Origin: a bacterium
Lineage (GTDB): Bacteria; Patescibacteriota; Microgenomatia; Daviesbacterales; UBA10151
Reading direction: 5' to 3'
Assembly: GCA_021786315.1 (NCBI GenBank)
Contig: JAJYNN010000002.1
Span: 545,494-609,493 of the forward strand
DNA length: 64,000 nucleotides
Of the stretch, positions 15,092 through 39,313 are shown in pieces (position 1 is the stretch's first letter; every line of letters begins with the position of its first letter). The notes under the pieces were generated by a model. The model had not been told where the DNA came from and did not search any database. It saw only the letters and a program-made list of their open reading frames with translations. The position numbers and the translations under genes were made by a program.

Positions 15092-16069
15092 ATGGAAGAT
15101 AACCTGCCCAAATCTGATAATCAATTTTGGTATGAAAATCAGCCCAACCATAATGAACCTCTTCAACCACAACCAGAACCTGCTCCTGCTGGTCCTCCAA
15201 TTCAAATAACAGAGAATAAGAAATACTCAGAGAAAAATGACCCGCCGATGGTAGATGTTAAAGTGACCAATCCTGTCTCCTACTTTAAAAAGTGGGTTAA
15301 ACATCTTTTAGGTAATGAGGGTATTGATATCGGTTTCAAATTTAAAGTTAAACCCTTAACCGCCATAGCTTTAATGGTTGCCTTGGCTGTTTCTTTTGGC
15401 ACTGGTTATGGAACTGGATTAAACGCCGCTGCCGGAGTTTTATTCCCCAACTCCTCCCCGCTTTTACACAGAACCGTGATGTACCAAGGAAATTTGCAAA
15501 AGGCAGGTGACAAATATCTTCTAATCCTTCCCAATTCAGATACTTATACTTTAAAACCCAAATCCAATACTAATATTAACTTTCAAAATTTAACTGATGG
15601 CCCGGTTTTAGTTAAAGGAAACTTAACCAGGGAAGCGTTTGTGATTGAACCCTCAGAAGTTATATCTTTAGGTGGTTCAGCCCCTGAGCCGCAAGCTACC
15701 CTTACCCCAACTAACTCTTCCATCTCTAATCCCACCGATTTCCCTAGTCTTTACCCCAGCCTGACTTGGGAAGTAACTCAAGAAAAAGTTTTAATATTTA
15801 CTTCGGGAAAAAGAAAGATCGAACAAAATGGTGTCTACCTGGAATCTGCTCAGGTACCTACTCTTCCTCAAGATTTCTTGAATTACTATACCAATGAGCT
15901 ACAAACCAAAGGTTTTGAGGAAACCTTAAATTCCAAAGATCCGGAAGGAACCACAATCACCTTTGCCAAAAATGACCTCTACTTAACCTTCGGCATCAAA
16001 AACATCTTTAAAGGCTCAGGCGACACCCGCCAACTCTCCGGCTACAAAGCCTTCATAGAACATAACTGA
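15092..16069 (+). CDS. membrane protein, paralog of 26482..27273
   Basis: Pro-rich N-terminus, one TM, shared PPMVDVKVTNPV/LLGNEGIDIGFKF/LFPNSSP/VKGNLTREA blocks. Confidence 0.8.
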   Translation: MEDNLPKSDNQFWYENQPNHNEPLQPQPEPAPAGPPIQITENKKYSEKNDPPMVDVKVTNPVSYFKKWVKHLLGNEGIDIGFKFKVKPLTAIALMVALAVSFGTGYGTGLNAAAGVLFPNSSPLLHRTVMYQGNLQKAGDKYLLILPNSDTYTLKPKSNTNINFQNLTDGPVLVKGNLTREAFVIEPSEVISLGGSAPEPQATLTPTNSSISNPTDFPSLYPSLTWEVTQEKVLIFTSGKRKIEQNGVYLESAQVPTLPQDFLNYYTNELQTKGFEETLNSKDPEGTTITFAKNDLYLTFGIKNIFKGSGDTRQLSGYKAFIEHN

Positions 16070-16810: not shown

Positions 16811-18406
16811 CTAAATATAGATGGCGCGTTCGTCTAGAGGCCTAGGACACTGGGTTTTCATCCCAGGAATCGCGGGTTCGAATCCCGCACGCGCTACTGA
16901 GAGGGATTGTAAGAAGGTTGTGTTTGATTTCCTCTGCGCGGGTGGGGGCGCGCAGAGCTCTCTAAAGCCCTGATTGTAGTCTACGGAAAGTTGCCGATTC
17001 AATAAAAAGAAGTTCGAGCCGACAGTTTTTGCTCCTATGCTTAAATCGGAGCATGTATTTTTTGCGCGCGCGATTTTTGCGCACGAAAGTGCGCTTCCGA
17101 CCCACTCTCTCATAGGTTCGAGCCAACTCGAACCGTTTTGTCTTATTCTCTCCAAATCTTCCTGAATTTTAAGTTTTTGTTCAAAAACTTCGTTCTTTTT
17201 ACTTTTATAAGTTTCACCATCTATTACCTGATCCAAGAAACTATCAAGTAACAAATTGAGCTTTTTATCTAAAGTTTCCAGCTCGTTTTTTAGGGAGATT
17301 ATATTTTCCTCAATGAACTTTTGCTCCTCAACTTCATCCCGATCCATCCATTTATACCAATCATGAGCCCAACTTTCGGGAATAGACACATCAGAAACAA
17401 TCTTTCTTACTTGTAGTTCTAAATCTTCTTGAGAAATATATTTTTGAGAACAAGGTTTAATTTTCTTAGTGCATCTATAGTAAATAAAGGTTTGTTTATT
17501 ACCATTTTTATATTTTTTAGTATGAGTTTCGGTAGTAATAGCCGCACCGCACTCTCCGCACCTCATCAAACCTCTAAAAGCAAAATCATGGCCATTTTTC
17601 CTTGGTCTTTCAATTCTTTTTATTTCTTGTTGAGCAGAATCAAATAGTTTTTTAGAGATAAATGTTTTATGAGAGCCCTGATAATACTCACCGTTATACT
17701 TTAAAATCCCAATATAAAATCTGTTGGATAGCATTTTCTTTATTTGGTTTATATGTAAAGGTTTTTTGTTTATGGTTGTACTTACCCAACCTCGAGTTAA
17801 CCCTAATTTGTGAAGATAGAGGGATATTTCCTTGTAAGATTTACCTCCCTCGGCAAAAAGTTCAAAGGCCTTTTTAATTGCTAAAGAAGTTTCCGGATCT
17901 ACTTGAACAGTTTTTGTATTCGAGTCGTTTTTATACCCGAAAGGTGCTTTCATTGGCCAAACTCCATTGCGAAGTTTTTGCCTTAGCCCACGTTTTACAT
18001 TTTCTGATAAGTTGTCGACATAATATTTGGATTGGCCAAAGGCAATATTTAGCATAAATTTTCCCTGTGGAGTATTTTCAAACCAGAAGGTAGGGAATTT
18101 AAGGTTTAGAAGATTACCGGTATCCAAGAGGTAAATTATTTGGCCGCCGTCAATTGAGTTACGAGCTAATCTATCGGGATGCCAGGCAATAATACCTTGT
18201 GCCTGTCCTTTCTCGATCTTTTTTATTACCTCTGCGAATTTTTCTCTTCCGGGGAGTTTAGCGGTTTTTGACTCTGTTATAAATTCTTTGATTTCTAAGT
18301 TCTCTCTTTTGGCAAATTCTTGAAGCTCAGCAATTTGAGCCTCAATAGAAAGGACTTGTCTATCCTTCTCATCTGTTGATTTTCGGCAGTATGCTATATA
18401 TTTCAT
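16811..18406 (-). CDS. large serine recombinase/integrase (resolvase + recombinase + Zn ribbon + coiled coil)
   Basis: YIAYCRKST catalytic Ser, DRLARN, APFGY, CGECG...YYRC...PC; C-terminus runs through the att site into antisense tRNA. Confidence 0.95.
   Translation of the reverse strand: MKYIAYCRKSTDEKDRQVLSIEAQIAELQEFAKRENLEIKEFITESKTAKLPGREKFAEVIKKIEKGQAQGIIAWHPDRLARNSIDGGQIIYLLDTGNLLNLKFPTFWFENTPQGKFMLNIAFGQSKYYVDNLSENVKRGLRQKLRNGVWPMKAPFGYKNDSNTKTVQVDPETSLAIKKAFELFAEGGKSYKEISLYLHKLGLTRGWVSTTINKKPLHINQIKKMLSNRFYIGILKYNGEYYQGSHKTFISKKLFDSAQQEIKRIERPRKNGHDFAFRGLMRCGECGAAITTETHTKKYKNGNKQTFIYYRCTKKIKPCSQKYISQEDLELQVRKIVSDVSIPESWAHDWYKWMDRDEVEEQKFIEENIISLKNELETLDKKLNLLLDSFLDQVIDGETYKSKKNEVFEQKLKIQEDLERIRQNGSSWLEPMREWVGSALSCAKIARAKNTCSDLSIGAKTVGSNFFLLNRQLSVDYNQGFRELCAPPPAQRKSNTTFLQSLSVARAGFEPAIPGMKTQCPRPLDERAIYI
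16823..16896 (+). tRNA. tRNA-Glu(TTC), integration target
   Basis: GGCGCGT/ACGCGCT acceptor, loop TTTTCAT, GCGGG-TTCGAAT-CCCGC. Confidence 0.95.
16894..16996. repeat. inverted repeat A, left copy (103 bp)
   Basis: Exact reverse complement of 18490-18592. Confidence 0.97.
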
Positions 18407-18489
18407 GGCAGTTTATCTTTAGGGGAAAAGTTCTTTTAGCGACAGCGTTTCCCAGAAATTTTTGCGTGTCTTCTTACTATCTTTCTTTA

Positions 18490-18703
18490 CGGCAACTTTC
18501 CGTAGACTACAATCAGGGCTTTAGAGAGCTCTGCGCGCCCCCACCCGCGCAGAGGAAATCAAACACAACCTTCTTACAATCCCTCTCAGTAGTACGGTAT
18601 CAACAAATTCGAACCTATTTCAAATCGACGTATGCATCGGTCGGTCGGTAGAAGCCCCTCCGCTTCGCGTCGGGGCCTTCTGATCTTTAAGCTCGGCCTT
18701 CGG
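18490..18703 (-). repeat. internal inverted copy of reconstituted attP (IR-A' + CTAC core + IR-B)
   Basis: 18490-18592 = revcomp of 16894-16996; 18589-18703 = revcomp of 28385-28499; the two overlap at GTAG/CTAC. Confidence 0.95.
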
Positions 18704-18764
18704 TCGAAGCTCTGAAACTGTCGGTTCCGAAAACGCAAAAATTTCAAAGAACTTTTCCAAAAAA

Positions 18765-21700
18765 TTATGCACTAAGTTGTATGTATGGATAATCCTTGTA
18801 AAGATTCTCTGCCTGTTCATATACCTTATCAACCATCAAGTCCACCTCTGCAAATGAAATATTATTCCTTAATAAGACTAACCTCACATCTGCTCTTACT
18901 CGAGCTTTAATAATTTCATGGTTAGTCCAGTCAATTGCTATATCTGCCCTTATAGCATGTATAATTTCTTTCACAATCCTCTTTAGATTACTATCTTTTA
19001 AAGACTTCTTACCCAGTGATAAGGCATCATAAAAAGCTAATTCCTCTACTGTTAATCCAATCTCCTTGCCAACTTCACTTGCTTGTCTAATTTCTCTAGC
19101 CAGTTCTAATAATTTATCTATCACTTTAGATGAATTGATAATATTGTTTTCATATTCCTCAATGATTTCTTCTAATTTATTAAGGAGAGTGTCATACCTT
19201 AAAATATTTGTTCTTCTGCGCATTTTTAATTCATCTTTTAACAGTTTGTTTATTGCCTCAATTGTTAGATTCTTAAATCTAGATTTCTTAATATCTTCCA
19301 GGAATCTTTCATCCAATATAGAAATATCAGGTTCCTCTCTCCCATTTTGAGAAAATATATCTATTACACCCTCAGCGACTATATTTTTTGAGATTAGATC
19401 TTTAATCGCGGTTTCTGTTTCATTACTTATATAGATTGGGTCTACAGTAGTGTTTTTAATGATAATTTTTCTAACTCCTTCGAAAAATTCTAGTTCTTCC
19501 CGAATATTATTTGCCGCTTTATGTGGCATTACTAAAGAGAAAAATTTATATAGTCTGCTGGAAAGGCTTAAGTATTGGTCTTTTTGTGCTGTATTTATAC
19601 CACCAGATACCGGATCCGTTAAAATTCCATTAACCGCTCTTGCAAAAAGTGACGCCAGTTCGCTACTAGGTAACTTATGCCAGTTGGTATATTCAATCCC
19701 TTCAAAAAATTTCTTTACTTTTTTATAGTGTTCTAACATTTTCGCGACCATCTCCTCTATTGGAACCATGGCTTGTTTTTGAACATCCGAAGTGTAGATT
19801 GCTAAAGCTTTCTTTAAGTTATCAGCAACACCAATATAATCAACAATTAACCCACCCTCTTTATCTTTATAGCGTCTGTTAACCCTAGCAATTGCCTGCA
19901 TCAAAGTATGACCTTCAAGAGGTTTATCTAAATAGAGTGTATTTAAATGAGGAACATCAAAGCCTGTAAGCCACATATCACAAACGATAACAATTTTTAA
20001 AGGATCTTCAGGATTTTTGAATCTTTTCTCAATTTCCCTATTATCTAACTCTTCTTGAATTTGTCCCTGAAAATCCTTACTGCCAGAAACAACAACAGCA
20101 ATTTCCGGTGCACCCTTCATTGTTTTGATAATTTCGTACATTCTTGCAGCAATTCTTCTACTCATAGTCACAAGTAATGCCTTTCCTTTATATCTTCTAT
20201 TTATAAAATGAAAAACGACATCATAAGCCACTTTTTGTAATCGATCCTCCGCTCCAATAGCGCTCTCCAAAGTAGCCCATTTATTCCTTAAGACGTCTTT
20301 TGTATCTATTGGATGCTCAGCTAATAATTGATCAAAGTCCAAATCAATGTATTTGTTGAAAACATGTAGAGGGGTTAATCGTCCTTCATAGTAGATTGGC
20401 ACCGTTGTTCCGTCCTCAACTGCTTTATCAATTGGATATTCACTAAATTCCTCACCAAAGACCATTTGTGTATTTCTGTTTTGCAAAGAGATTGGAGTAC
20501 CAGTAATACCCATAAAAGAGGCATTTGGTAAAACATCTCTAACATTGCCTGCAAATGTGGCATATTGCGATCTGTGCGCTTCGTCTGCAATCACGATAAT
20601 ATTTTCTCTTTCCGATAAAGGTTCTCTCGTATCAAACTTCTGAATAGTAGTAAATAGAACCTCGGATCCAGCTCCTTTTAGCTGATTAATTAATCCAGCG
20701 ATACTGCCTGCTTGTTTTACAGTGGGGTAACCTGTTCGCAAGAAAGTTTTATACAGCTGCTGATCCAAATCATTACGGTCTGTTAAAAACAGTATTGTCG
20801 GGCTTTTTAGTTGCTCCGCTCTTTTAGCTTTATTAACATAGAAAACCATAGATAAAGATTTTCCGCTTCCTTGTGTATGCCAAAAAACTCCAATCTTTTT
20901 ATTACTAACGATAGCTTGTAAAGTTCTTCCAATCGCTTTGTTCACGCCAAAATATTGATGATACATCGCCATCTTCTTGGTAAATTTAGAAGCATCTTTC
21001 TCAGCGTCTGCCTCAAAGACAATAAAGTTCTCAATTAGATCAAGTAAATGATTTTTATTAAACATTCCCTTTATCAAAAGTTCTAATTCTGACTTCTCTA
21101 GATTTTTTTCGTTCTCACTCTCTATTCCTTTCCAAACATTAAAAAAGTCGAAGGAAGACGAAATAGTTCCATGCTTCGCCTTCATTAGATCGCTGATAAC
21201 AAGTACCTGGTTATACAAAAATATCTTTGGAATTTCTTTTTTATACAAGTCGTGAATTTGTGAGTATGCGTCGGCAATTGTCACCTTTCCATCAACGGGA
21301 TTTTTTACTTCAAATAATCCCACGGGAATTCCGTTAATAAAAACGACCACGTCTGGAATTCTTATAGAAGATCCTTGAACAGAAAATTGGTTAACTACTA
21401 AAAACTCGTTGTTATCCGGATTTCTATAATCAATAATATTTACGATCTCACCTTTAAGATCATTATTTTTGTCTTTGACTTCTACTCTTATCCCTTCCGT
21501 CAACCACTTAAAAACTTCTTTGTTTCCTAACTCTAAATCCTGATGATCATATTTAGTGATCTTATCTACAACCTCGTTAACTTTTTCATCTGGAATATCT
21601 GGATTTATTCTTTTTAAAGATCTTTTTAGTCGCGTCTCTAGAACAACCTCTCTATAATCACTACGTTCTTGAAAAGTTCCGCCAGGGGAGATATCAGGAC

Positions 21701-21782
21701 CATATGCATGTTCATAACCCAATTCATTGAGCCATTCTAATACTGGTTTTTCTGCTAAATTATTTTCATTAAGTTTTGACAT
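18765..21782 (-). CDS. hsdR: Type I restriction endonuclease subunit R
   Basis: PD..VFINGIP...EVK nuclease, HTQGSGKS, DEAHR, TGT, DMWLTGFDVP, QAIARVNR. Confidence 0.96.
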   Translation of the reverse strand: MSKLNENNLAEKPVLEWLNELGYEHAYGPDISPGGTFQERSDYREVVLETRLKRSLKRINPDIPDEKVNEVVDKITKYDHQDLELGNKEVFKWLTEGIRVEVKDKNNDLKGEIVNIIDYRNPDNNEFLVVNQFSVQGSSIRIPDVVVFINGIPVGLFEVKNPVDGKVTIADAYSQIHDLYKKEIPKIFLYNQVLVISDLMKAKHGTISSSFDFFNVWKGIESENEKNLEKSELELLIKGMFNKNHLLDLIENFIVFEADAEKDASKFTKKMAMYHQYFGVNKAIGRTLQAIVSNKKIGVFWHTQGSGKSLSMVFYVNKAKRAEQLKSPTILFLTDRNDLDQQLYKTFLRTGYPTVKQAGSIAGLINQLKGAGSEVLFTTIQKFDTREPLSERENIIVIADEAHRSQYATFAGNVRDVLPNASFMGITGTPISLQNRNTQMVFGEEFSEYPIDKAVEDGTTVPIYYEGRLTPLHVFNKYIDLDFDQLLAEHPIDTKDVLRNKWATLESAIGAEDRLQKVAYDVVFHFINRRYKGKALLVTMSRRIAARMYEIIKTMKGAPEIAVVVSGSKDFQGQIQEELDNREIEKRFKNPEDPLKIVIVCDMWLTGFDVPHLNTLYLDKPLEGHTLMQAIARVNRRYKDKEGGLIVDYIGVADNLKKALAIYTSDVQKQAMVPIEEMVAKMLEHYKKVKKFFEGIEYTNWHKLPSSELASLFARAVNGILTDPVSGGINTAQKDQYLSLSSRLYKFFSLVMPHKAANNIREELEFFEGVRKIIIKNTTVDPIYISNETETAIKDLISKNIVAEGVIDIFSQNGREEPDISILDERFLEDIKKSRFKNLTIEAINKLLKDELKMRRRTNILRYDTLLNKLEEIIEEYENNIINSSKVIDKLLELAREIRQASEVGKEIGLTVEELAFYDALSLGKKSLKDSNLKRIVKEIIHAIRADIAIDWTNHEIIKARVRADVRLVLLRNNISFAEVDLMVDKVYEQAENLYKDYPYIQLSA

Positions 21783-21783
21783 A

Positions 21784-22602
21784 TTAGTGATCTTCCAATT
21801 GTAATTTTTGTTGAGGTTCTTTATATGACTCTATATCAACTACTTTAATTTTGGGAACCTCATAATCACTATTTCTTATTACTATCCCTCTCAACTGAAC
21901 TTTTTCCATTTCAAGATATTCGTGAAATTTCGTCGTACTCTTTTCTTTATCCAAAGGAGAAACATTTAAGGTGTACCCTTTATAAATAAATCCTAAATCA
22001 TTTAATTTTTTATTTATCCGTGTAATTTCTCCATCTATAACAACTTCCTCTCCGTTTCTAAGTTCCGGTAATATGGGATCTTCTTGTTTATCTACATAAA
22101 ATTGATACTTATTATCGCAAGTAATCTTGAATGACTTATCTCCTATAACGATTTCCGCATGTTCGTTGTATTCGCTAACTGGCCTCGCCATTTTTTCTGC
22201 ACCTTTTCTGAAATCATAACTTCTACATAATTCAAAGACCTTCTTGTCGGAAATGGCGTCTAACAATTCTTTTGTGGGATTCTTCAAGCTATTCGATCCA
22301 AATCTATCGATTATTACAAAGGCTGATACTATTATTGTGGCTACATAACTTATTCGCTCTACGGTTTGCCAGGGGTGCTTCTGAACATATATAAGCTTTG
22401 TTCTAACCGAACCATTTTCAATTGGAAGAACGTATATATTATCGTAAGCCAGCATTCCTATTTTTGCTGCTTCTTTTAAACATGTCTCCAAGCCAATAAT
22501 TGCTTCTCCTAACTCTTTAGCTGGCATTGCACTTTTTTCCGCAGAATACACTAAGAATATTTCCGATGAAGAGGGATCGACTTGGAATAGTTGTTGATTC
22601 AT
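21784..22602 (-). CDS. hypothetical protein embedded in the Type I RM operon
   Basis: 272-aa ORF abutting hsdS and hsdR. Confidence 0.75.
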   Translation of the reverse strand: MNQQLFQVDPSSSEIFLVYSAEKSAMPAKELGEAIIGLETCLKEAAKIGMLAYDNIYVLPIENGSVRTKLIYVQKHPWQTVERISYVATIIVSAFVIIDRFGSNSLKNPTKELLDAISDKKVFELCRSYDFRKGAEKMARPVSEYNEHAEIVIGDKSFKITCDNKYQFYVDKQEDPILPELRNGEEVVIDGEITRINKKLNDLGFIYKGYTLNVSPLDKEKSTTKFHEYLEMEKVQLRGIVIRNSDYEVPKIKVVDIESYKEPQQKLQLEDH

Positions 22603-23745
22603 CTAAATTGTTATTTCTCCTTTCATTAATTTTGGTAAAAGCAAATCACGCAAAGCAGTTAATTTTTGATTTTCCAGCTTTAAACTGATCATAGTTCTGT
22701 AAGTAACATCAAAAATATTTATATTTTTATTGTCAGATATAAAAATATTTTGTTCTTTTAAATGCTCTTTTTTAATATGTCCCATGGTCGTAGCTTTGGC
22801 ACCCGCCTGTTGTTGAAAAAATTTTAGCTTCGACTTAAGAAGAAAATATATAAACCCTTTGGAAAAATCACTTGTTGGAACTACATTAAATATATGCTGG
22901 TTTAATATCGCCTTATCTTTATCCCAGATATACAAATCTACTGTACCAGACCAAGAGAATAGCAAGTCACCGTTTTGGATGTAATATTTATCGTCCACCT
23001 TTTTGTCTATCCATTCAGTATTATCTGAAACTCCTCTGTTTAAGTCAGCAATTTTTATTAGCGGAAGTCCTTTCTTCATTCTGTTTGTAATTTTTCCAAA
23101 AGCCCCGCCATTAATATAATTCGCTATATCCAACAATGAATATTTAGTACCTTCATTAGAGGAGAACCATTTTTTAAAAAATGTCTGGGCCATTTCTTCT
23201 AAAGTTTTTGAAATTTTATTGTTCACTTCAATCTTTTCATCTAATGCAGCTAAAATTCTGGAAATTTTTTTTTGTATAGACAATGGAGGGGTTGGAACTA
23301 AAACATTCTCGAAAGTACCAAGATTAATATTGTCTTGTGCGCTACCGATGGCATAACTTTGAATATTTCTCTTAAGATATTGCAGAGAATATAGAATAAA
23401 ATCTGGATCGCTTTTTTCTTCGTCTGCTAAAAAACCGATTACACTATCAGGGAAACACGCCGGAAAAGTTAGTTTTCCTAAATCTGCAATATTTGCTGCG
23501 ATCGTTATACAAATTGTATTAACGGGCCACATCCTACTTTGTTTTAAACCATTTTCACTGTATGTTTGTGAATATGAAGTTATTCGACCACCTGAGGCTT
23601 TCACATCACCTGTTTGTATAAATGGGTACGGACCACCATACAATATCCTTGCGTCTCTTGGCCGATGTCGAGATCTTCCTCTATTAAGTTCACCTAACTG
23701 AGTTAATTTTTTTAATTGCCAATTATCTGGAATCTGATTTTGCAT
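22603..23745 (-). CDS. hsdS: Type I RM specificity subunit
   Basis: IPDNW, PPLSIQKKI...LDEKIE.N...LEEMAQ, LRDLLLPKLMKGEI; two TRDs. Confidence 0.95.
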   Translation of the reverse strand: MQNQIPDNWQLKKLTQLGELNRGRSRHRPRDARILYGGPYPFIQTGDVKASGGRITSYSQTYSENGLKQSRMWPVNTICITIAANIADLGKLTFPACFPDSVIGFLADEEKSDPDFILYSLQYLKRNIQSYAIGSAQDNINLGTFENVLVPTPPLSIQKKISRILAALDEKIEVNNKISKTLEEMAQTFFKKWFSSNEGTKYSLLDIANYINGGAFGKITNRMKKGLPLIKIADLNRGVSDNTEWIDKKVDDKYYIQNGDLLFSWSGTVDLYIWDKDKAILNQHIFNVVPTSDFSKGFIYFLLKSKLKFFQQQAGAKATTMGHIKKEHLKEQNIFISDNKNINIFDVTYRTMISLKLENQKLTALRDLLLPKLMKGEITI

Positions 23746-23746
23746 A

Positions 23747-25537
23747 TTAATAATTAATCTTTTTTAGATTTTCTAAAATTTCCTTTTCTAATTTTTCAGA
23801 TTTTGTGAAATATTGTTTTAGTTCTGATTCTAATTCTTTCATCTTTTCTTCGAACGGAACTCCATCCTCCTCTTCATCCTCCACTCCAACAAAACGACCC
23901 GGTGTTAAAACATAACCACTTTTTACAATTTCCTCTTTTGTTGTTGCCTTACAAAATCCGGAAACATCTTTATATTCTCCATTTTCGCTCCTCCAAGCCC
24001 TCACAGTATTAGCAATTAGCTGAACTTGTTCTTCATTAAAAGTCACTTGTTTTCGAGAGATTTGAGTAAAATATTTTGAGTCTCGAGCATCAATGAAAAG
24101 AGTTTCTCCTTTTCTGTTTCTGAATCTGCCGGATTCTTTATTTTTTGTGACAAACCATAACGACACTGGAAGGGAAACATTAAAAAATAGTTTTGGAGGA
24201 CAAGCAATTATTACATCAATCAGATCATCCTCAATCATTCTTTTTCTGATTTCACCTTCCTTGCCGGAAACAGCCAACGCTCCATTAGCCATTACAAATC
24301 CAGCTATTCCATTTGGGGTTAAGTGGTTTATAAAATGTTGAATCCACATAAAGTTAGCATTTCCTTTCGGAGGAGTGCCATAAACTAATCTCGGATCTTT
24401 TTCAGAAAGACGATCTGAATCCCATTCTGCATTAAATGGAGGATTAGCCAGGATAAAATCGACTTTAAGTTCTCTGAACTTGTCATCATAGTAAGAATTA
24501 CCAAATTGGATATTTCCAAAAACTCCACGGATAGCAAGATTCATCTTGCAGAGCTTTAAAGTTGTTTGATTACTTTCTTGGCCGAATATGGATATTTTTG
24601 TCGGATCTTTATGGTGCTCTTGCAAGAATTTGCTGGACTGGACAAACATTCCACCAGACCCACAACATGGGTCTAAAACCCTACTGTTTTCATAAGGTTC
24701 AAGAATTTCAACTAAAAGTTTTACTAGCGAACGAGGTGTATAAAATTCTCCTCCTCTTTTACCCTCAGCATCAGCAAACTGTCCCAAGAAATATTCATAG
24801 ACTCTACCAAGTAAATCTTTCTCTCTATCCTCATCATCGTTGAAATCTATCCGGGAAAAAATATTAATGAGTTCTCCTAAGATTTGACTTTCAAGTGGAA
24901 CGCGAACATAACTCTTTGGCAGAACTCCTGTCAGCTGTTCAGGGTTTTCATTTTCTATAGCTTCCATAGCATCGTCGATATACTTCGCTAAATCTGATAA
25001 GGCAGCTTTGCTTCTCAAATATTCCCATCTGGCGATTTCTGGAATATAAAAGATCCCCTCCTTCTTATACATGTCTTTATCTTCCAAAATCATTTCTCGA
25101 GCAGCGGGGTTAGGGATATAGTATTGCTTGTTTTTGGAATCACTCATCCATTTTTGAAGTTTTTCTCTTCTTTGGTAAAAAGAATCAGAAATATACTTAA
25201 GGAAAATAAGACCTAAAACGACATTCTTGTAATCAGAAGAATCAATATTACCCCTAAGTCTATCTGCAGCTGCCCATAGCTCTTTTTCAAAATGAATATC
25301 TGTTTTAGGTTTACTAGCTAAATCCCGAGCTTCCTTTGCTGTAGCTTTTTGAGTTTGGATAATTCTATCTTTAAAATCCTGAGGAAGAGTATTGTACTTT
25401 AGAAGATATTTTTTACCCTCTGTTCGTGTTTCGATTTCTCCAGCATTAATTTTACCTTGGAGTTGCTTTAAAACAGCCTGACGAGATATACCTAATATCC
25501 TGGCGATATCACTAATTGAGATAAAATTTTCATCCAT
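23747..25537 (-). CDS. hsdM: Type I RM N6-adenine methyltransferase with N-terminal HTH
   Basis: LWAAADRLRG, GEFYTP, DPCCGSGG, NPPF; N-term ISISDIARILGISRQAV helix-turn-helix. Confidence 0.95.
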   Translation of the reverse strand: MDENFISISDIARILGISRQAVLKQLQGKINAGEIETRTEGKKYLLKYNTLPQDFKDRIIQTQKATAKEARDLASKPKTDIHFEKELWAAADRLRGNIDSSDYKNVVLGLIFLKYISDSFYQRREKLQKWMSDSKNKQYYIPNPAAREMILEDKDMYKKEGIFYIPEIARWEYLRSKAALSDLAKYIDDAMEAIENENPEQLTGVLPKSYVRVPLESQILGELINIFSRIDFNDDEDREKDLLGRVYEYFLGQFADAEGKRGGEFYTPRSLVKLLVEILEPYENSRVLDPCCGSGGMFVQSSKFLQEHHKDPTKISIFGQESNQTTLKLCKMNLAIRGVFGNIQFGNSYYDDKFRELKVDFILANPPFNAEWDSDRLSEKDPRLVYGTPPKGNANFMWIQHFINHLTPNGIAGFVMANGALAVSGKEGEIRKRMIEDDLIDVIIACPPKLFFNVSLPVSLWFVTKNKESGRFRNRKGETLFIDARDSKYFTQISRKQVTFNEEQVQLIANTVRAWRSENGEYKDVSGFCKATTKEEIVKSGYVLTPGRFVGVEDEEEDGVPFEEKMKELESELKQYFTKSEKLEKEILENLKKINY

Positions 25538-25546
25538 GCCGGAAGC

Positions 25547-25592
25547 AGTATAGTACTAAAAAATAATTCTGTCAAGTTGTCATCGTGACAAC
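25547..25592 (-). promoter_or_regulatory. sigma70 promoter of hsdM with adjacent palindromic operator
   Basis: TTGACA (25575-25570), 17 bp, TATACT (25552-25547); GTTGTCA-N3-TGACAAC at 25576-25592. Confidence 0.75.
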
Positions 25593-25627
25593 CTTAAATT
25601 AGAAATAATTGCGATACAAGAGTTTCT

Positions 25628-26485
25628 TCAGTAACACTTTTTAGTGCTACTACCCTCTAAATAATAAGACTCTTTTTTAGGATCAAACCGATATGTATTC
25701 TTTTCTTCGGTATCACTTCCATGATCTCCACAAGACCAACCTTGCTCAACCTTCCCTTCAGAATTTGGCAGAAAGTTATCGACCCAGTAGAAAGTTTGAT
25801 CTTTGTTGATTATTGGATAGACAACAGCTTTATTATTGGCCTTACTATATCCCAAGACTAAATGTTCAGTATGTCCACAAGCCAAAGTAAAACCATTTAG
25901 GAGAAACTCATAATAATACCCATCGCCGTTTAAATCCTGAAAATTCATCAAGTCCACATCTGTATACTCGAGTTGTTCTACAGAAGGTTCGCTACCTTCC
26001 AATTTCAAATAAGCCGGATCAGCGTTCATTCTGATATTTTGATAAGCTAAACGGATATTATTGCTTGGAGGTAATGGTTTCCCTGTACTTAAATCTACAT
26101 TAGAGCCCGAACCCGGAATCGAAACATCATTAATAAGTTTGTTGTTTTGTATCAGGGCTAAATGATAGTTACCTTCAATCGCTCTTCCCTCTATGCCGGA
26201 AGCACAAGAAGTATAAGCAGACCATCTGCGGGATGGTTCTAATAATTCGTCTGTTTTAGAGTTTAATACATAGAGCACCAAGTACGATTCAGGAGAAAGA
26301 TTGGGAATTTTCTTATATTCTCGGAGTAATGCTTCTTTGGGAATTAAGTTCTTGATAGAACTGTCGCTAATATTTGTTTTATCGGGTTTATTTATGTTTT
26401 TTGTATCAATTTTTAAAGAGGGAAAATAGAAGAAACCAACAATCAACACAAATGGAATGATAAATAATAACTTTTTTCTGCTCAT
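25628..26485 (-). CDS. membrane-anchored extracytoplasmic protein
   Basis: N-terminal TM, four Cys, DLNGDG motif. Confidence 0.75.
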   Translation of the reverse strand: MSRKKLLFIIPFVLIVGFFYFPSLKIDTKNINKPDKTNISDSSIKNLIPKEALLREYKKIPNLSPESYLVLYVLNSKTDELLEPSRRWSAYTSCASGIEGRAIEGNYHLALIQNNKLINDVSIPGSGSNVDLSTGKPLPPSNNIRLAYQNIRMNADPAYLKLEGSEPSVEQLEYTDVDLMNFQDLNGDGYYYEFLLNGFTLACGHTEHLVLGYSKANNKAVVYPIINKDQTFYWVDNFLPNSEGKVEQGWSCGDHGSDTEEKNTYRFDPKKESYYLEGSSTKKCY

Positions 26486-27273
26486 TTATTACTATCAAAA
26501 ATATTTATTTCAGATACATTAATAACATTGGCTTCTCTAGTTAGGTTTCCTTTAACCATTACTTGTTTGTTTATAGAATTGTTGATGGTATTGAGGGCTG
26601 TTTGGGATTTTGGGAGTAGCTTCCATAAAGTTGTATCGGGTAAAGATAAATAGTATTGTCCGTCTTGAGTTTTCTGAATAGTTCCTTGATAGACAATAGC
26701 TCGATGAAGGATAGGGCTTGAGTTAGGGAAAAGAATTCCGGCAGCCGAATTTAGACCAGAGGTATAACCAGTTCCGAAAGAAGCTGCGAGGGCAATCATA
26801 ATAGCTACTGCAGTCATAGGCTTAATTCTAAACTTAAATCCAATATCTATGCCCTCGTTTCCCAAAAGGTGTTTAATCCATTTTTTAAAGTAAGTTACGG
26901 GATTAGTAACTTTCACATCCACCATTGGAGGATCATTATTTTCTGAGTATTTATCATTTTGGGTTACTTGGATTGGAGCAGGGTAAGAGGAATCAGGGTG
27001 ATCAGGGATATTAGGGGAAATTGGAGGATTGGGATTATCAGGGACAGTATAATCACTTTTAATAAAGTGTCCTTGGGCATCTCGCTTTTGGTGTTTTGCT
27101 AATTCACTTTGAACAGGGTCTATTAAGTCAGGAGAAGGATTTGAAGGAATAGGAGGAATGGGGGTATCAGGGAAATTGGGGGGATTCGGGGAAGGAGTTT
27201 GAGCTAATGGTTCGGGTTGAGTTGGTTGTTGAGGGGTAAAGGAATTATTAGGATCAGGCAGTTTGTCATCCAT
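26482..27273 (-). CDS. Pro-rich membrane protein, paralog of 15092..16069
   Basis: Shares long identical blocks with 15092..16069. Confidence 0.8.
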   Translation of the reverse strand: MDDKLPDPNNSFTPQQPTQPEPLAQTPSPNPPNFPDTPIPPIPSNPSPDLIDPVQSELAKHQKRDAQGHFIKSDYTVPDNPNPPISPNIPDHPDSSYPAPIQVTQNDKYSENNDPPMVDVKVTNPVTYFKKWIKHLLGNEGIDIGFKFRIKPMTAVAIMIALAASFGTGYTSGLNSAAGILFPNSSPILHRAIVYQGTIQKTQDGQYYLSLPDTTLWKLLPKSQTALNTINNSINKQVMVKGNLTREANVINVSEINIFDSNK

Positions 27274-27387
27274 AAATCCAGTATATCTACTAGATTAGAA
27301 AGGTGCAACTGCAGCGGAAATATACAAAAAGTTATCCAATATATTGTGTATTGACTCGGCTTTCCATACAAGGTGTAAAATTTAATT

Positions 27388-27720
27388 ACTCTCTGCAGTA
27401 GCGGAGGTAGAAGGGAGGGCCATGAATTTGACCCAACTTTTGTACTCCGTGAGTATCTTTGGTAATTGAAACTAGCAAACGGACAAGCAAGGAGGATCCA
27501 AATAACCTTGCTTACTTAATTGTTCAGGGAAGATTACTGACAACACTCTAGCGGAGGCTCACCTTTGTCTTACCTAAAGGTTAAGTGTTGTCTACCGGAA
27601 AATTGGGAGAGAATAACCAATCAAAGCAAACTGAGACGTCGGTTTGGGGAGATATAGGTATTAGGTACTTTTGTAGGTGAGAGGGCCACTCAGTATTCTC
27701 ACTGGGTGGCCTTTTCTTTA
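27388..27720 (+). ncRNA. candidate structured ncRNA (~330 nt)
   Basis: TTGACT..TAAAAT upstream, several stems, strong terminator at 27684-27719, no long ORF. Confidence 0.4.
27684..27719 (+). terminator. intrinsic terminator
   Basis: ggccactcagt-attctc-actgggtggcc followed by ttttcttt. Confidence 0.85.
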
Positions 27721-28384
27721 TTCTCCTTGCAAACTCTTTTCTCTTCTGTGGCGGTTCCGCCGCCCCCGCCCCTTTGGGATAATAACCGTTCAGGAGGGCA
27801 GCACCTTAGAAGAAATCTTTTTGGAATTAGTAGTAAGTAAAATGGGTGCTGCCCGACAATAGCGAGGGCCGAGAAAGCCAAGTCATATTTTAGAAGAACC
27901 GGCCCGAGCCCTCGGAATTAGTGCGAGAAAGTTTCTCGAGAAACTTTCGAGCGGCATGGATGCAAGTAGGGCTAAAAATTGCGGCGGGGGCGATTGCGGA
28001 CAAACCCCCGCAACGGCAGGAGGTATTAGAAAGAAGAAAAGGGTAGGCGAAAAGTACCGAAGGTAACCTTACCCAACGAACTTTTCGCCGAGTTAGATAC
28101 TACCAATACTAGTTCGTAAGGCAACAATATAGGCGAGGCGCCCCCTAGGGCGACCTCTCGCCCAAAAGCGGGGGTGCCGCTACTACTAATTTGGGTGGGT
28201 GGGTTAGTTCAGGATACAAGATTTACTCTTCTTACCCGTTACCGTAGCGGTAACGGTATCCGTAACGGTCCGTTACGGTGATTAGCTTGTCAAAAACCGC
28301 TAAACTCCCCATTCTTAAATATCTTAATAATTCTTTAAAAATCGCGCGCTTTTCTGTCTCTTAGCAAAAAATACCAGAGCGAGG

Positions 28385-28499
28385 CCGAAGGCCGAGCTTA
28401 AAGATCAGAAGGCCCCGACGCGAAGCGGAGGGGCTTCTACCGACCGACCGATGCATACGTCGATTTGAAATAGGTTCGAATTTGTTGATACCGTACTAC
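28385..28499. repeat. inverted repeat B, right copy (115 bp; element right end)
   Basis: Exact reverse complement of 18589-18703. Confidence 0.97.
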
Positions 28500-28504
28500 A
28501 AAAG

Positions 28505-28540
28505 AAAAAGTCCTCCCTTCGGGGAGGCTTTTTGTTTTTT
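28505..28540 (+). terminator. intrinsic terminator (probable original tRNA-Glu terminator)
   Basis: aaaaagtcctccc-ttcg-gggaggctttttgttttt. Confidence 0.85.
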
Positions 28541-28556
28541 AACTGTGATTAGGCAA

Positions 28557-28657
28557 GAATCTGCGCATCTCGCAGAGCTAAGCAGGTTCGATCAGGCAAA
28601 GCCTGACAACATCTTCGAGCAAAGCGAGAAGTAGTGTTAATCCCCGCACGCGCTACT
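28557..28657 (+). repeat. structured unit ending in a copy of the tRNA-Glu 3' end
   Basis: cccgcacgcgctact (28643-28657) equals 16884-16898; preceded by hairpin modules shared with the Lys/Asp/Thr loci. Confidence 0.85.
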
Positions 28658-29219
28658 TGTTACGATTAAAATGGTGAGTTTTTAGACCCTTAACCTCACC
28701 GTTTCCTTTTTGAGTTTCAGAAGCAGCCCGCCGCAATTTTTCCGAAGAAGCAGGATTCTTCCGGGCTTCATCTTCAAACTTTCTTCCCTGAATATTGATC
28801 TCCTTTTTAACTTCCTCTTTCCGGGCAGAACTGCTTGCCATATTTTCACTATCCTTTACCGCTTCCTGATAATGCTCAATCGCATCATCCAATTTCTTTG
28901 GGTCATTACTTACTTTCAAAACATCATCGCCCCTTCTTTCTATAATTAAGGAGGGGTTATTGGTGGCTTTGGCCACTATATTATCAGCCAATACTTTAAT
29001 CGGATAGAACGTGTCCCCGGGTTCAGCTGCCTGAACTACCCCTCCAAACCCGCCTAGAATTATTAATGCCCCAATCAAACTCAAGACTATCTTTGAATAA
29101 GGAACAGGCGAATTATAAGCATTCTGATCACCCAATTTGGACTCCAACTTTTTCCACTCTTTATCAGGATTATTATCTGAAATATTAATATAGCTTTTTC
29201 TTAATTCCTCTAATTTCAT
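28653..29219 (-). CDS. putative anti-sigma factor (TM + DUF5667-like PGD.FYP.K motif)
   Basis: 4-bp overlap with the ECF sigma gene; single TM; AEPGDTFYPIKV. Confidence 0.7.
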   Translation of the reverse strand: MKLEELRKSYINISDNNPDKEWKKLESKLGDQNAYNSPVPYSKIVLSLIGALIILGGFGGVVQAAEPGDTFYPIKVLADNIVAKATNNPSLIIERRGDDVLKVSNDPKKLDDAIEHYQEAVKDSENMASSSARKEEVKKEINIQGRKFEDEARKNPASSEKLRRAASETQKGNGEVKGLKTHHFNRNK

Positions 29220-31408: not shown

Positions 31409-31547
31409 AAACCTTTGATAAAAACAATTTATAAATACCAAGTACCAATTTACAATGAATTTTCAAAAACTCAATGATCAAAAGTTTAGAACTTCGAACA
31501 TTGAAATTTATTTGAAAATTGTAAACTGAAAATTGAAAATTCTGAAG

Positions 31548-37816: not shown

Positions 37817-37939
37817 TCCGCCTAGTCTAAATAATTTTCAATTTTAAATTCAAAATTTTCAATTAATTTTCAATGCCTTAATTTTTAAAAATTTAAACAT
37901 TGGATCATTTATTAAAAATTAAAAATTAGAAATTAGAAA

Positions 37940-39313
37940 TTAAGCCTCCTTTCCTAAATCTGGTTTTTTATTATGCCAATCAGTTGATTGTTCATAAATT
38001 TCCCCTATATTTAAAATTGTCTCTTCATCCAAATATTTACCTAAAATCTGCAAACCTACCGGCAGACCATCGGAAAATCCGCAGGGAACTGACAACCCAG
38101 GGATTCCAGCGAGCGATGCCGGGATTGTATAGACATCAGATAGATACATAGTTAAAGGATCTTCAATCTTTTCTCCCAAATTCCAGGCTACTGTCGGAGA
38201 AACCGGACCCACAATCACCTCACATTTTTCAAATGCTTTTTCAAAATCCTGTTTAATCAAGGTTCGAACTTCGGCAGCTTTGGCAAAATAATCATCGTAG
38301 TATCCGGTAGAGAGAGCAAAAGTTCCGAGCATTATTCTTCTTTTAACCTCCGGGCCAAAGTCTTCCCGCCCTGATCCAAACCTAATACCGTCAAATTTGG
38401 CCATATTGGAAGAAACCTCAGAAGACATAATAATGTAATAGGCAGCCACGGCATATTCAGTGTGAGGCAAGCTCACTTCGACAATTTCCGCTCCCAATTC
38501 TTCTAACTTTTTAATAGCTTCACGGATAACCTTCTCTACCCCTTTATCCAATCCCTTACCAAAATATTCTCTCGGCACCCCAACCCTTACTCCCGCAAGG
38601 CATCCCCTTGCGGCGCAAGGCGTCACCTTGCACGAAGCTGGATCAACACAATTTGAGTCCTTTCCATCTGGCCCGGAAATCCATTCTAAAACTAACCTGG
38701 CATCTGCCACTGATTTTGTTATCGGGCCAATTTGGTCCAAAGATGAGGCCATAGCAATTGCCCCATACCTGGGCACCCTTCCATAACTCGGTTTAAGCCC
38801 GACCACTCCACAAAGTGAGGCTGGTTGGCGGATTGAGCCACCGGTATCGGTTCCCAAAGCAAAAGTACAAAGGTCTGCCGCTACCGCTGCCGCTGATCCG
38901 CTGGAAGATCCGCCGGGTACTTTTGTCTCATTCCAAGGGTTTTTCGTTGGACCATAGGCTGAATTCTCGCCCGATGAACCCATGGCAAACTCGTCCAAAT
39001 TTGTTTTTCCGATTATCCCAATCCCCTTTTCTTTGAGGCGGTCAATTACTGTTGCACTATAAGGAGGAACGAAATTACTCAATATTTTTGATCCCGCAGT
39101 AGTCCTAATATTTTGAGTACAAATTATATCCTTTATTGCTGCAGGCATATTTTGGGGATTTTTTTTAATTTCCAGAAAAATATTTAGCCTCGGATTTATT
39201 TTTTCAATTCTTTCGAGGTAAGCCTTATTTAATTCCTCCGATGAGAATTTCTTTTCCTCTAAAGCTTTTAAGGTTTCTATCAGTGTTAATCCGGTAATAT
39301 CATTCATTCTCAA
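37940..39313 (-). CDS. gatA: Asp/Glu-tRNA amidotransferase subunit A
   Basis: [32 protein letters not shown]. Confidence 0.97.

Follow-up and report, generated by a model that had tools for sequence, protein, structure and literature searches.

The window analysed here is a 64,000-nucleotide stretch of a Patescibacteria genome (GenBank assembly GCA_021786315.1, contig JAJYNN010000002.1, positions 545,494 to 609,493 of the forward strand), in which an 11.6-kb element at the 3' end of a tRNA-Glu gene is a real and intact-looking member of a widespread family of integrated elements. It carries a gene for a large serine recombinase, whose Resolvase (PF00239), Recombinase (PF07508) and zinc-ribbon (PF13408) domains score above the Pfam cut-off, and a type I restriction-modification (RM) system as cargo. 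The left end of the element (arm A, 16894-16996, 103 bp) and its right end (arm B, 28385-28499, 115 bp) share the 4-bp core CTAC, and both recur, joined on this core, just before the recombinase start, where the reverse complement of 18490-18703 reads as arm B followed by arm A at 214 of 214 bases. A preliminary description had proposed this exact inverted fusion and had taken it for an internal copy of the element's own attP, the junction expected in the excised circle. Both points are borne out, the second by a T-loop motif at attP spacing, and the layout supports the further suggestion that an excised circle would carry two attP sites. Self-BLAST recovers the two arm copies with E values of 6e-54 and 2e-47, and the whole genome, 780,724 bases in three contigs, contains each arm exactly twice. 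The right border at 28499 is fixed independently, as the unit that follows it also lies directly 3' of tRNA-Arg(TCG) and tRNA-Lys(CTT) in the same genome.

Arms of this size are close to common k-mer sizes, and many homologous contigs break at the arms, hence an artefact of circle-derived reads has to be considered, as does a one-off duplication. Either explanation is now almost inconceivable. The strongest evidence is that the same layout, with slightly diverged copies (arm A is identical in 42 of 153 loci, median 98%), is present in more than 100 other, separate assemblies; three of these (L041, L046 and L093) bear the title complete genome. The assembly graphs also support both internal junctions. 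In two sequencing runs that may be the window's source (X1 and X2), unique unitigs enter the repeat by 30 letters at 18489/18490 and at 18703/18704, an extension that equals the k-1 overlap of the graph and falls one letter under the 31-letter bar for bridging. A run from a second study (X3) has a unique extension at 18489/18490 only, among the pieces listed, and run X6 contains relatives only. The unitig depth of arm A is about twice the single-copy value (32 versus 15, and 21 versus 12), while that of arm B is doubled in X1 (37 versus 14) and not in X2 (15 versus 13); contig data of this kind are unable to show the orientation of the segments within the window's population.

A family of elements with an inverted attP

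Homologous loci were pooled from 61 relatives, from 401 genomes of the host class, from the best 80 of 582 genome matches and from extended regions, with a metagenome share of 79 loci from the best 80 of 591 matches. Loci were dropped if the match missed the gene start or did not cover at least residue 300, and the remaining 216 were collapsed to 192 integrases under 97% identity, or 191 excluding the window's own. Recombinase homologs, close and distant matches together, occur in 199 of the 401 genomes sampled from the host's class, a tally that is the only one to include the unpublished genome G101. The family integrases are 40-75% identical to the window recombinase, and the nearest named homolog, at 73% among the best 80 of 582 genome matches, comes from a record titled Candidatus Daviesbacteria. 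Viral contigs yielded two partial loci, the search of solved structures matched one N-terminal domain only, and the phage and plasmid matches listed for the recombinase are less than 31% identical.

The preliminary description had called for a search of relatives for an upstream inverted attP, and this search shows that the arrangement is not a one-off: of the 119 loci with enough flanking sequence, 107 have arm A repeated in inverted orientation (A') no more than 600 bp upstream of the gene, and the corresponding pair of arm B copies (B and B') is found in 58 of 66 loci with 9 kb upstream. Among the 12 loci counted without A', three fall outside the distance filters (L037, L087 and L172), some are chimeric or distant, and some lack it. 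Close recombinase homologs thus mostly carry the inverted-attP layout. Distant tRNA-adjacent recombinases (34-46% identical) have A' in nine and lack it in eight of 17 evaluable cases, which indicates that the layout marks a clade. The median identity between copies is 98% for arm A and 99% for arm B over about 100 bp, and the copies within one element differ by 0.5-2.4% over the first 70 nt before the similarity decays.

Complete elements span 2.4-10.9 kb (72 loci) and are inserted at 18 tRNA types as well as tmRNA. The 16 shortest cargo segments (583-930 nt) contain small unrelated open reading frames (ORFs), with no shared gene seen among them, whether for a directionality factor or for replication, although directionality factors are too diverse to be excluded by sequence. 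A family-wide structured RNA or origin in the cargo was considered and rejected, as shared sequence is present only at the ends, by the arms, and the non-coding stretch at 27274-28288 matches at most 6 of 75 other loci anywhere. In five tandem or chimeric elements (L046, L102, L200, L226 and L250) the B arm of one element abuts the A arm of another; such B-to-A joins restore the recombinase tail described below in frame in L046, and one base off in L102. Six further loci (L093, L101, L110, L177, L197 and L205) are inserted after tRNA-like 3' ends for which ARAGORN makes no call and which have an upstream motif in common; this motif may mark tRNA introns.

A recombinase gene split at its own attachment site

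The overlap between attL and attR is 2-11 bp long and lies around the last bases of the tRNA (67 loci), CTAC being the version in the window. In 82 of 86 loci arm B contains a T-loop-like motif whose distance from the core exceeds that of the T-loop of the tRNA itself by 4 or 5 bp; the shift is confined to the tRNA/B side, and the internal site keeps this motif at attP spacing. A shift of the recognition motif between attP and attB has been reported for the LI integrase in the accessible part of PMC3783163. The shift in these 82 loci therefore identifies B as a P-type half-site and the internal copy as a true attP. A palindromic central dinucleotide was considered as the cause of the inverted layout and rejected, because the core here has TA while most homologous cores do not, and because the extra junctions lie about 100 bp from the core.

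When the reading frame of the recombinase is joined to arm B, it ends in a short tail with an R/K-T-like motif in 84 of 90 loci, the window included. The tails that are derived from the tRNA instead are variable in length and use at least two frames (27 and 45 loci; 18 without a frame call). In 86 motif-anchored tails hydrophobic residues recur at helical spacing, and the threonine uses all four of its codons and the phenylalanine both, while the arginine is mostly CGA, which belongs to the DNA motif; these patterns suggest selection on both the protein and the DNA. The conserved last helix-like segment of the recombinase is thus encoded only across the joined attP. Judged from the reading frames, insertion appears to split the gene at its own attP and to remove about 13-19 C-terminal residues.

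These observations bear on the earlier proposal that the integrase segment is a phase switch. It is correct that recombination between A and A' would give the gene an in-frame continuation into the strongly conserved tail encoded by attP, and such a flip would also place the gene under the tRNA promoter. The orientation data speak against regular switching. Across the 191 loci the gene faces the tRNA in 128, has the tRNA upstream in 6, and has no tRNA called nearby in 57. Downstream flank is available for 139 of the loci with A'. A called tRNA or tmRNA forms the end in 112 of these, and the other 27 include no junction with the element's own B arm, so that the gene lies on its own B arm in 0 of 139. 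Flipping of the cargo by B and B', also proposed, fares no better: a single one of 54 orientable loci is flipped (53 versus 1), namely L022 (G006:C15), which has clamp sequences (see below) beside the terminal B in direct orientation. The idea of a switch that governs the mobility of an RM defence island consequently holds only as far as the RM cargo itself is concerned, as the switch is not supported and the RM genes are incidental, minimal relatives carrying one small unrelated gene instead.

Flips of either segment are possible but rare. A double-stranded inversion switch, driven by the recombinase or by RecA acting on the 100-bp repeats, could still operate if the flipped state were brief and led to excision. 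The six loci with an upstream tRNA and the cargo flip in L022 show that flips can happen, and recombination between the repeats would homogenise them as well. Such a switch is nonetheless unlikely, because it leaves unexplained the clamps, the geometry of their junctions, the 100-bp B pair and the self-complementary genes, and because serine integrases are reported, in the accessible part of PMC3783163, not to recombine other site pairings, attL x attP included.

Four of the six loci with the tRNA upstream lie at a contig edge, while in the remaining two, L099 and L151, the integrase segment is joined to one tRNA sequence at one end and to a different one at the other (in L151 at about 33-123 and 1851-1940). 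This suggests either that the internal attP recombined with a second tRNA, possibly by a chromosomal inversion, or that the assemblies are chimeric. The internal copy might accordingly be a second working attP for double-stranded reactions, such as re-use at another tRNA, capture of cargo, formation of tandem arrays or amplification of circle copies; the yeast 2-micron plasmid amplifies its copies by flipping between inverted sites. The two-tRNA loci, the tandem or chimeric elements L102, L226 and L250 and the motif kept at attP spacing are all in line with this idea. It is improbable all the same, given that only two such loci are known and both come from metagenome assemblies that may be chimeric, that the 16 shortest elements share no replication gene, and that the clamps and the gene-wide stems are again unexplained.

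Antisense clamps and the proposed folded strand

Both B copies are bordered by short segments, here called clamps, that are antisense to fixed sites in the element's own recombinase gene and its leader. The 90 nt next to the internal B' contain clamps in 53 of 75 loci and the 100 nt next to the terminal B in 51 of 75, compared with 1 of 75 in each control window. In one large group their partners are the leader and gene nt 90-119, 137-157 and 1335-1362, while a group nearer to the window uses gene nt 1310-1339 and 1360-1381 with the topology unchanged. On the predicted pairings, both arrangements would cap the far ends of a rebuilt attP duplex with multi-way junctions. The clamps abut the arms and one another within a few bases, like the junctions of a folded strand; where a clamp is split, the insert is a pair of hairpins (4 of 4), and in 46 of 47 loci the loop closed by the leader clamp measures 221-274 nt. 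Per base, clamps score 0.92-0.96 against their own gene and on average 0.50-0.66 against the genes of others. Where an element's gene departs from the consensus, the clamp matches the departure at 232 of 256 positions, a count that is inflated by the finding of clamps through alignment to their own gene and by the relatedness of the elements, which are not independent.

The recombinase genes themselves are often self-complementary. With synonymous shuffles as the reference, perfect stems of at least 10 bp are in excess (z>3) in 111 of 147 homologs; the median is 162 nt in stems versus 28 nt, while 115 long host ORFs have a median z of 0.4. Distant recombinases reach z>3 in 8 of 9 cases with A' and in 2 of 8 without, and the window's nearest relatives are self-complementary less often (21 of 44 versus 107 of 127). 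In L247 (G238:C1), 480 of 1320 coding bases lie in perfect stems of at least 10 bp (z 21), the strongest case in the distant set.

Whether such pairing acts in DNA or in RNA is reflected in the mismatches. G-T and A-C mismatches number 74:75 in arm A, 16:36 in arm B (coding strand, p=0.008), 32:40 in the clamps and 33:33 in the intragenic stems, and the polarity of hairpin loops is 15:22. In the absence of a consistent G-T strand bias the pairing is read as DNA; the pattern seems to suit perfect DNA pairing, usable on either strand, better than an RNA fold. A G-T bias that would name the folding strand was also pursued and given up: the first 126 loci hinted at it (28:44 and 4:12), and in the larger set it is gone for arm A and left in arm B.

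The pairings could alternatively act in a transcript of the circle, which would span the leader clamp, the gene, attP and the terminal clamp and whose fold would control the expression or stability of the recombinase, the internal attP doubling as operator or decoy. On the circle, all paired segments do fall within a single stretch of about 2.1 kb, whatever the length of the cargo, and the clamps are directed, in antisense, at the leader and the early part of the gene, where antisense control of transposases acts as well. This is rather unlikely nevertheless. The arms, clamps and intragenic stems have no excess of G-U on the coding strand, functional RNA does not typically contain perfect duplexes of 100 bp, and about 50 bp rather than 214 would suffice for an operator. 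Promoter and terminator scans stay at chance level (6 promoters found versus 4.5 expected), and no RNA runs with the sequence are on record.

The reading favoured here, with a probability of roughly 0.55, is that the internal attP is a splint on which a single strand folds, so that the ends of the element are rejoined into a circle with a gene for the complete enzyme. The observed part of this model consists of the layout and its conservation, the co-varying clamps and the tail encoded only across the joined attP. A single strand of the integrated element, either taken up by natural competence or exposed in replication, would fold A on A' and B on B' and thereby restore attP as a duplex of 214 bp, interrupted precisely at the core and with the tRNA and the flank as tails, while the clamps would cap both of its far ends in multi-way junctions. 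Pairing of A with A' and of B with B' is predicted at -146 and -163 kcal/mol, and the A and B stems reappear in minimum free energy folds of two minimal relatives; such folds cannot show the clamps, because these cross both stems. The tails would then be trimmed and the break sealed by host nucleases and ligase, or with the aid of the shortened recombinase. Heteroduplex repair on the fold might keep the copies within each element near-identical, which would account for copies that stay within about 2% for 70 nt and then decay.

The resulting circle would encode the full-length recombinase and insert at a tRNA end by ordinary attP x attB exchange, which would cut the tail off again and leave the gene antisense to the tRNA. 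No excision factor would be needed for a circle with a complete gene. The use of one attP copy in nearly all insertions might reflect selection against a complete, tRNA-driven gene, which is a guess. Natural competence is a plausible source of single strands: the host genome encodes ComEC and DprA, and Saccharibacteria are described as naturally competent and importing single strands in the accessible part of PMC10633639. A wider form of the model, tentative and held at somewhat short of even odds, is that these widespread Patescibacteria elements travel as naked, origami-like folded single-stranded DNA, in which the internal attP splints the ends for recombinase-independent self-excision; with only the circle encoding a complete integrase, the fold would replace the excision factor, the relaxase and the replication genes.

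Several observations weigh against the splint, besides the inflated co-variation count. Neither a circle nor a single-stranded form nor an empty site was observed in the sequence data examined, and no tRNA-to-right-flank joint, as in an empty site, occurs among the contigs listed for X1-X3. Depth values for the B|A junction unitig disagree between runs (22.6 versus 15 in X1, 8.6 versus 12 in X2). If the circle is double-stranded and its two attP sites are equal, insertion in both orientations is to be expected, yet 128 loci stand against at most 6. Serine recombinases cut all four strands, so a one-strand exchange like that of CTX phage cannot explain this bias. The model also requires as much as 10 kb of unpaired cargo to persist in single-stranded form. 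At the threshold used, clamps are absent in 21 of 75 loci, and those of the window are short (11-22 nt) and have inserts on either side. The window's own gene is not enriched in self-pairing (44 nt in stems versus 29±23), reaches z 2.3 at a 9-bp seed, and has a folding z of -1.7, like hsdM and dnaE. Finally, the mismatches in arm B lean to one strand (16 G-T versus 36 A-C, p=0.008).

The enzyme, the target and the folded-strand logic each have precedents. As in the large serine integrase elements (phiC31, Bxb1, A118/LI and SPbeta), there are catalytic, recombinase and zinc-ribbon domains and a short core, and the 4-5 bp shift of the motif between the attB and attP half-sites resembles that of LI integrase in the accessible part of PMC3783163. 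Those elements have one attP of about 50 bp that is absent once they are integrated, whereas the family keeps a second, inverted attP of 214 bp in the integrated state; its arms are about 100 bp rather than 25, its gene is cut by its own attP, the motif is present on one half-site only, and the shortest members share no directionality-factor gene. Invertons and shufflons such as Hin, Gin and Fim likewise have a gene flanked by inverted repeats beside a recombinase, but here the orientation is nearly fixed across the family and the repeats are the element's own att arms.

CTX phage and integrons use tyrosine recombinases and a one-strand exchange on short local hairpins, and the SE elements also use tyrosine recombinases, together with accessory genes; the family therefore belongs to neither group. 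The CTX attP and the integron attC are still similar in that a single strand is predicted to rebuild a double-stranded site from inverted arms (accessible part of PMC9345347), and, as in CTX/IMEX and integron cassettes, co-varying pairs were found that point to a putative fold-back site. In the family the recombinase is of the serine type, the partners are 1.5 and 10 kb apart, and the clamps tie the gene into the fold. One-strand circularisation, as proposed here, is a feature of SE elements too, although the accessible part of the same source reports no inverted-repeat structure at the SE-6945 sites, unlike in the family.

Archaeal suicidal integrases split near the N-terminus of the protein. 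Those of SSV1, pTN3 and pT26-2 have attP inside the gene and a tRNA target, so that insertion splits the gene, and they are called exclusive to archaea by one review in its accessible part (PMC8371274). The family shares the attP within the gene, the tail being in frame only across attP (84 of 90), and differs in having a bacterial serine rather than tyrosine recombinase, in losing only about 13-19 C-terminal residues and in keeping a spare joined site. A full-text literature search, from which most subscription papers and supplements were out of reach, found no description of the layout, and the element family is apparently undescribed. If the model is correct, folding of its own DNA strand would be a new exit route for an integrative element, such self-splinted excision being of a new kind, and a bacterial serine integrase completed only on the circle would have built-in directionality. 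These small elements may be one of the main ways in which Patescibacteria acquire single genes and defence systems, and the family offers many compact serine integrases aimed at the 3' ends of many tRNA genes.

Cargo and neighbouring features

The coordinates of the element and its parts are collected in Table 1.

Table 1. Features of the element and its target in the window (positions of the window, 1-based).
Feature	Position	Strand	Remarks
tRNA-Glu(TTC), target	16823..16897	+	T-loop motif 4-5 bp nearer the core than the matching arm B motif, in line with an attB half-site
Large serine recombinase ORF, 531 aa	16811..18406	-	Integrated form reads via the core into the tRNA antisense strand; without the conserved RTxF tail
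Arm A with CTAC core (attL)	16894..16996	+	Minus strand codes the last pre-core recombinase residues; GC-rich hairpin inside
Recombinase gene segment, nt 1379-1394	17013..17028	-	Complementary (imperfect) to clamp 18715-18731
Recombinase gene segment, nt 1329-1352	17055..17078	-	Complementary to two-part clamp 28337-28349 + 28364-28374
Recombinase gene segment, nt 135-156	18251..18272	-	Complementary to 28289-28310, 22/22
Leader segments 18424-18436 + 18455-18467	18424..18467	-	Complementary to contiguous clamp 18733-18758 (13 + 13 exact)
Internal inverted attP (B' joined to A' on CTAC), proposed splint	18490..18703	-	214/214 identical to both ends
Conserved tail frame inside the internal attP	18592-18651	+	
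Antisense clamps by internal B' (to gene 3' region and leader)	18715..18758	+	
Cargo: HsdR, type I restriction subunit, 1005 aa	18765..21782	-	
Cargo: 272-aa ORF	21784..22602	-	Without Pfam or PADLOC match
Cargo: HsdS, type I specificity subunit	22603..23745	-	
Cargo: HsdM, type I methyltransferase	23747..25537	-	
Cargo: two ORFs without family match	25628..27273	-	
Hairpin-rich non-coding stretch	27274..28288	.	Parts common to close relatives only
Antisense clamps by terminal B arm: 28289-28310, 28337-28349, 28364-28374	28289..28374	+	
Arm B with CTAC core (attR)	28385..28499	+	T-loop-like motif 28473-28481; opposite strand codes I-R-T of the conserved tail

The 272-aa ORF between hsdS and hsdR is a possible accessory defence gene. 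The cargo ORF at 26482-27273 has an inverted paralog (76% over 259 bp) in the host gene at 15092-16069, which directly precedes the target tRNA; this hints at a capture of neighbouring host DNA. One relative joins position 18752 to 27751 without the RM cargo. The non-coding stretch at 27274-28288 contains a 22-bp perfect palindrome (27927-27948), and pieces of it recur in other contigs; an Rfam search found no match in it at E<=1, only the tRNA being above threshold.

Directly beyond the right border, at 28500-28658, lies a separate unit of about 160 nt with a terminator-like hairpin, a tRNA-like motif and a 14-17-nt repeat of the host tRNA's own 3' end. It is found 3' of tRNA-Glu, tRNA-Arg(TCG) and tRNA-Lys(CTT) (G000:C3, about 528362-528530 and 529392-529255), with pieces 3' of other tRNAs, and looks like a miniature tRNA-targeting element. 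Further outside the element, an imperfect 111-bp palindrome is located at 37832-37942, with a partial second copy at 31472-31541.

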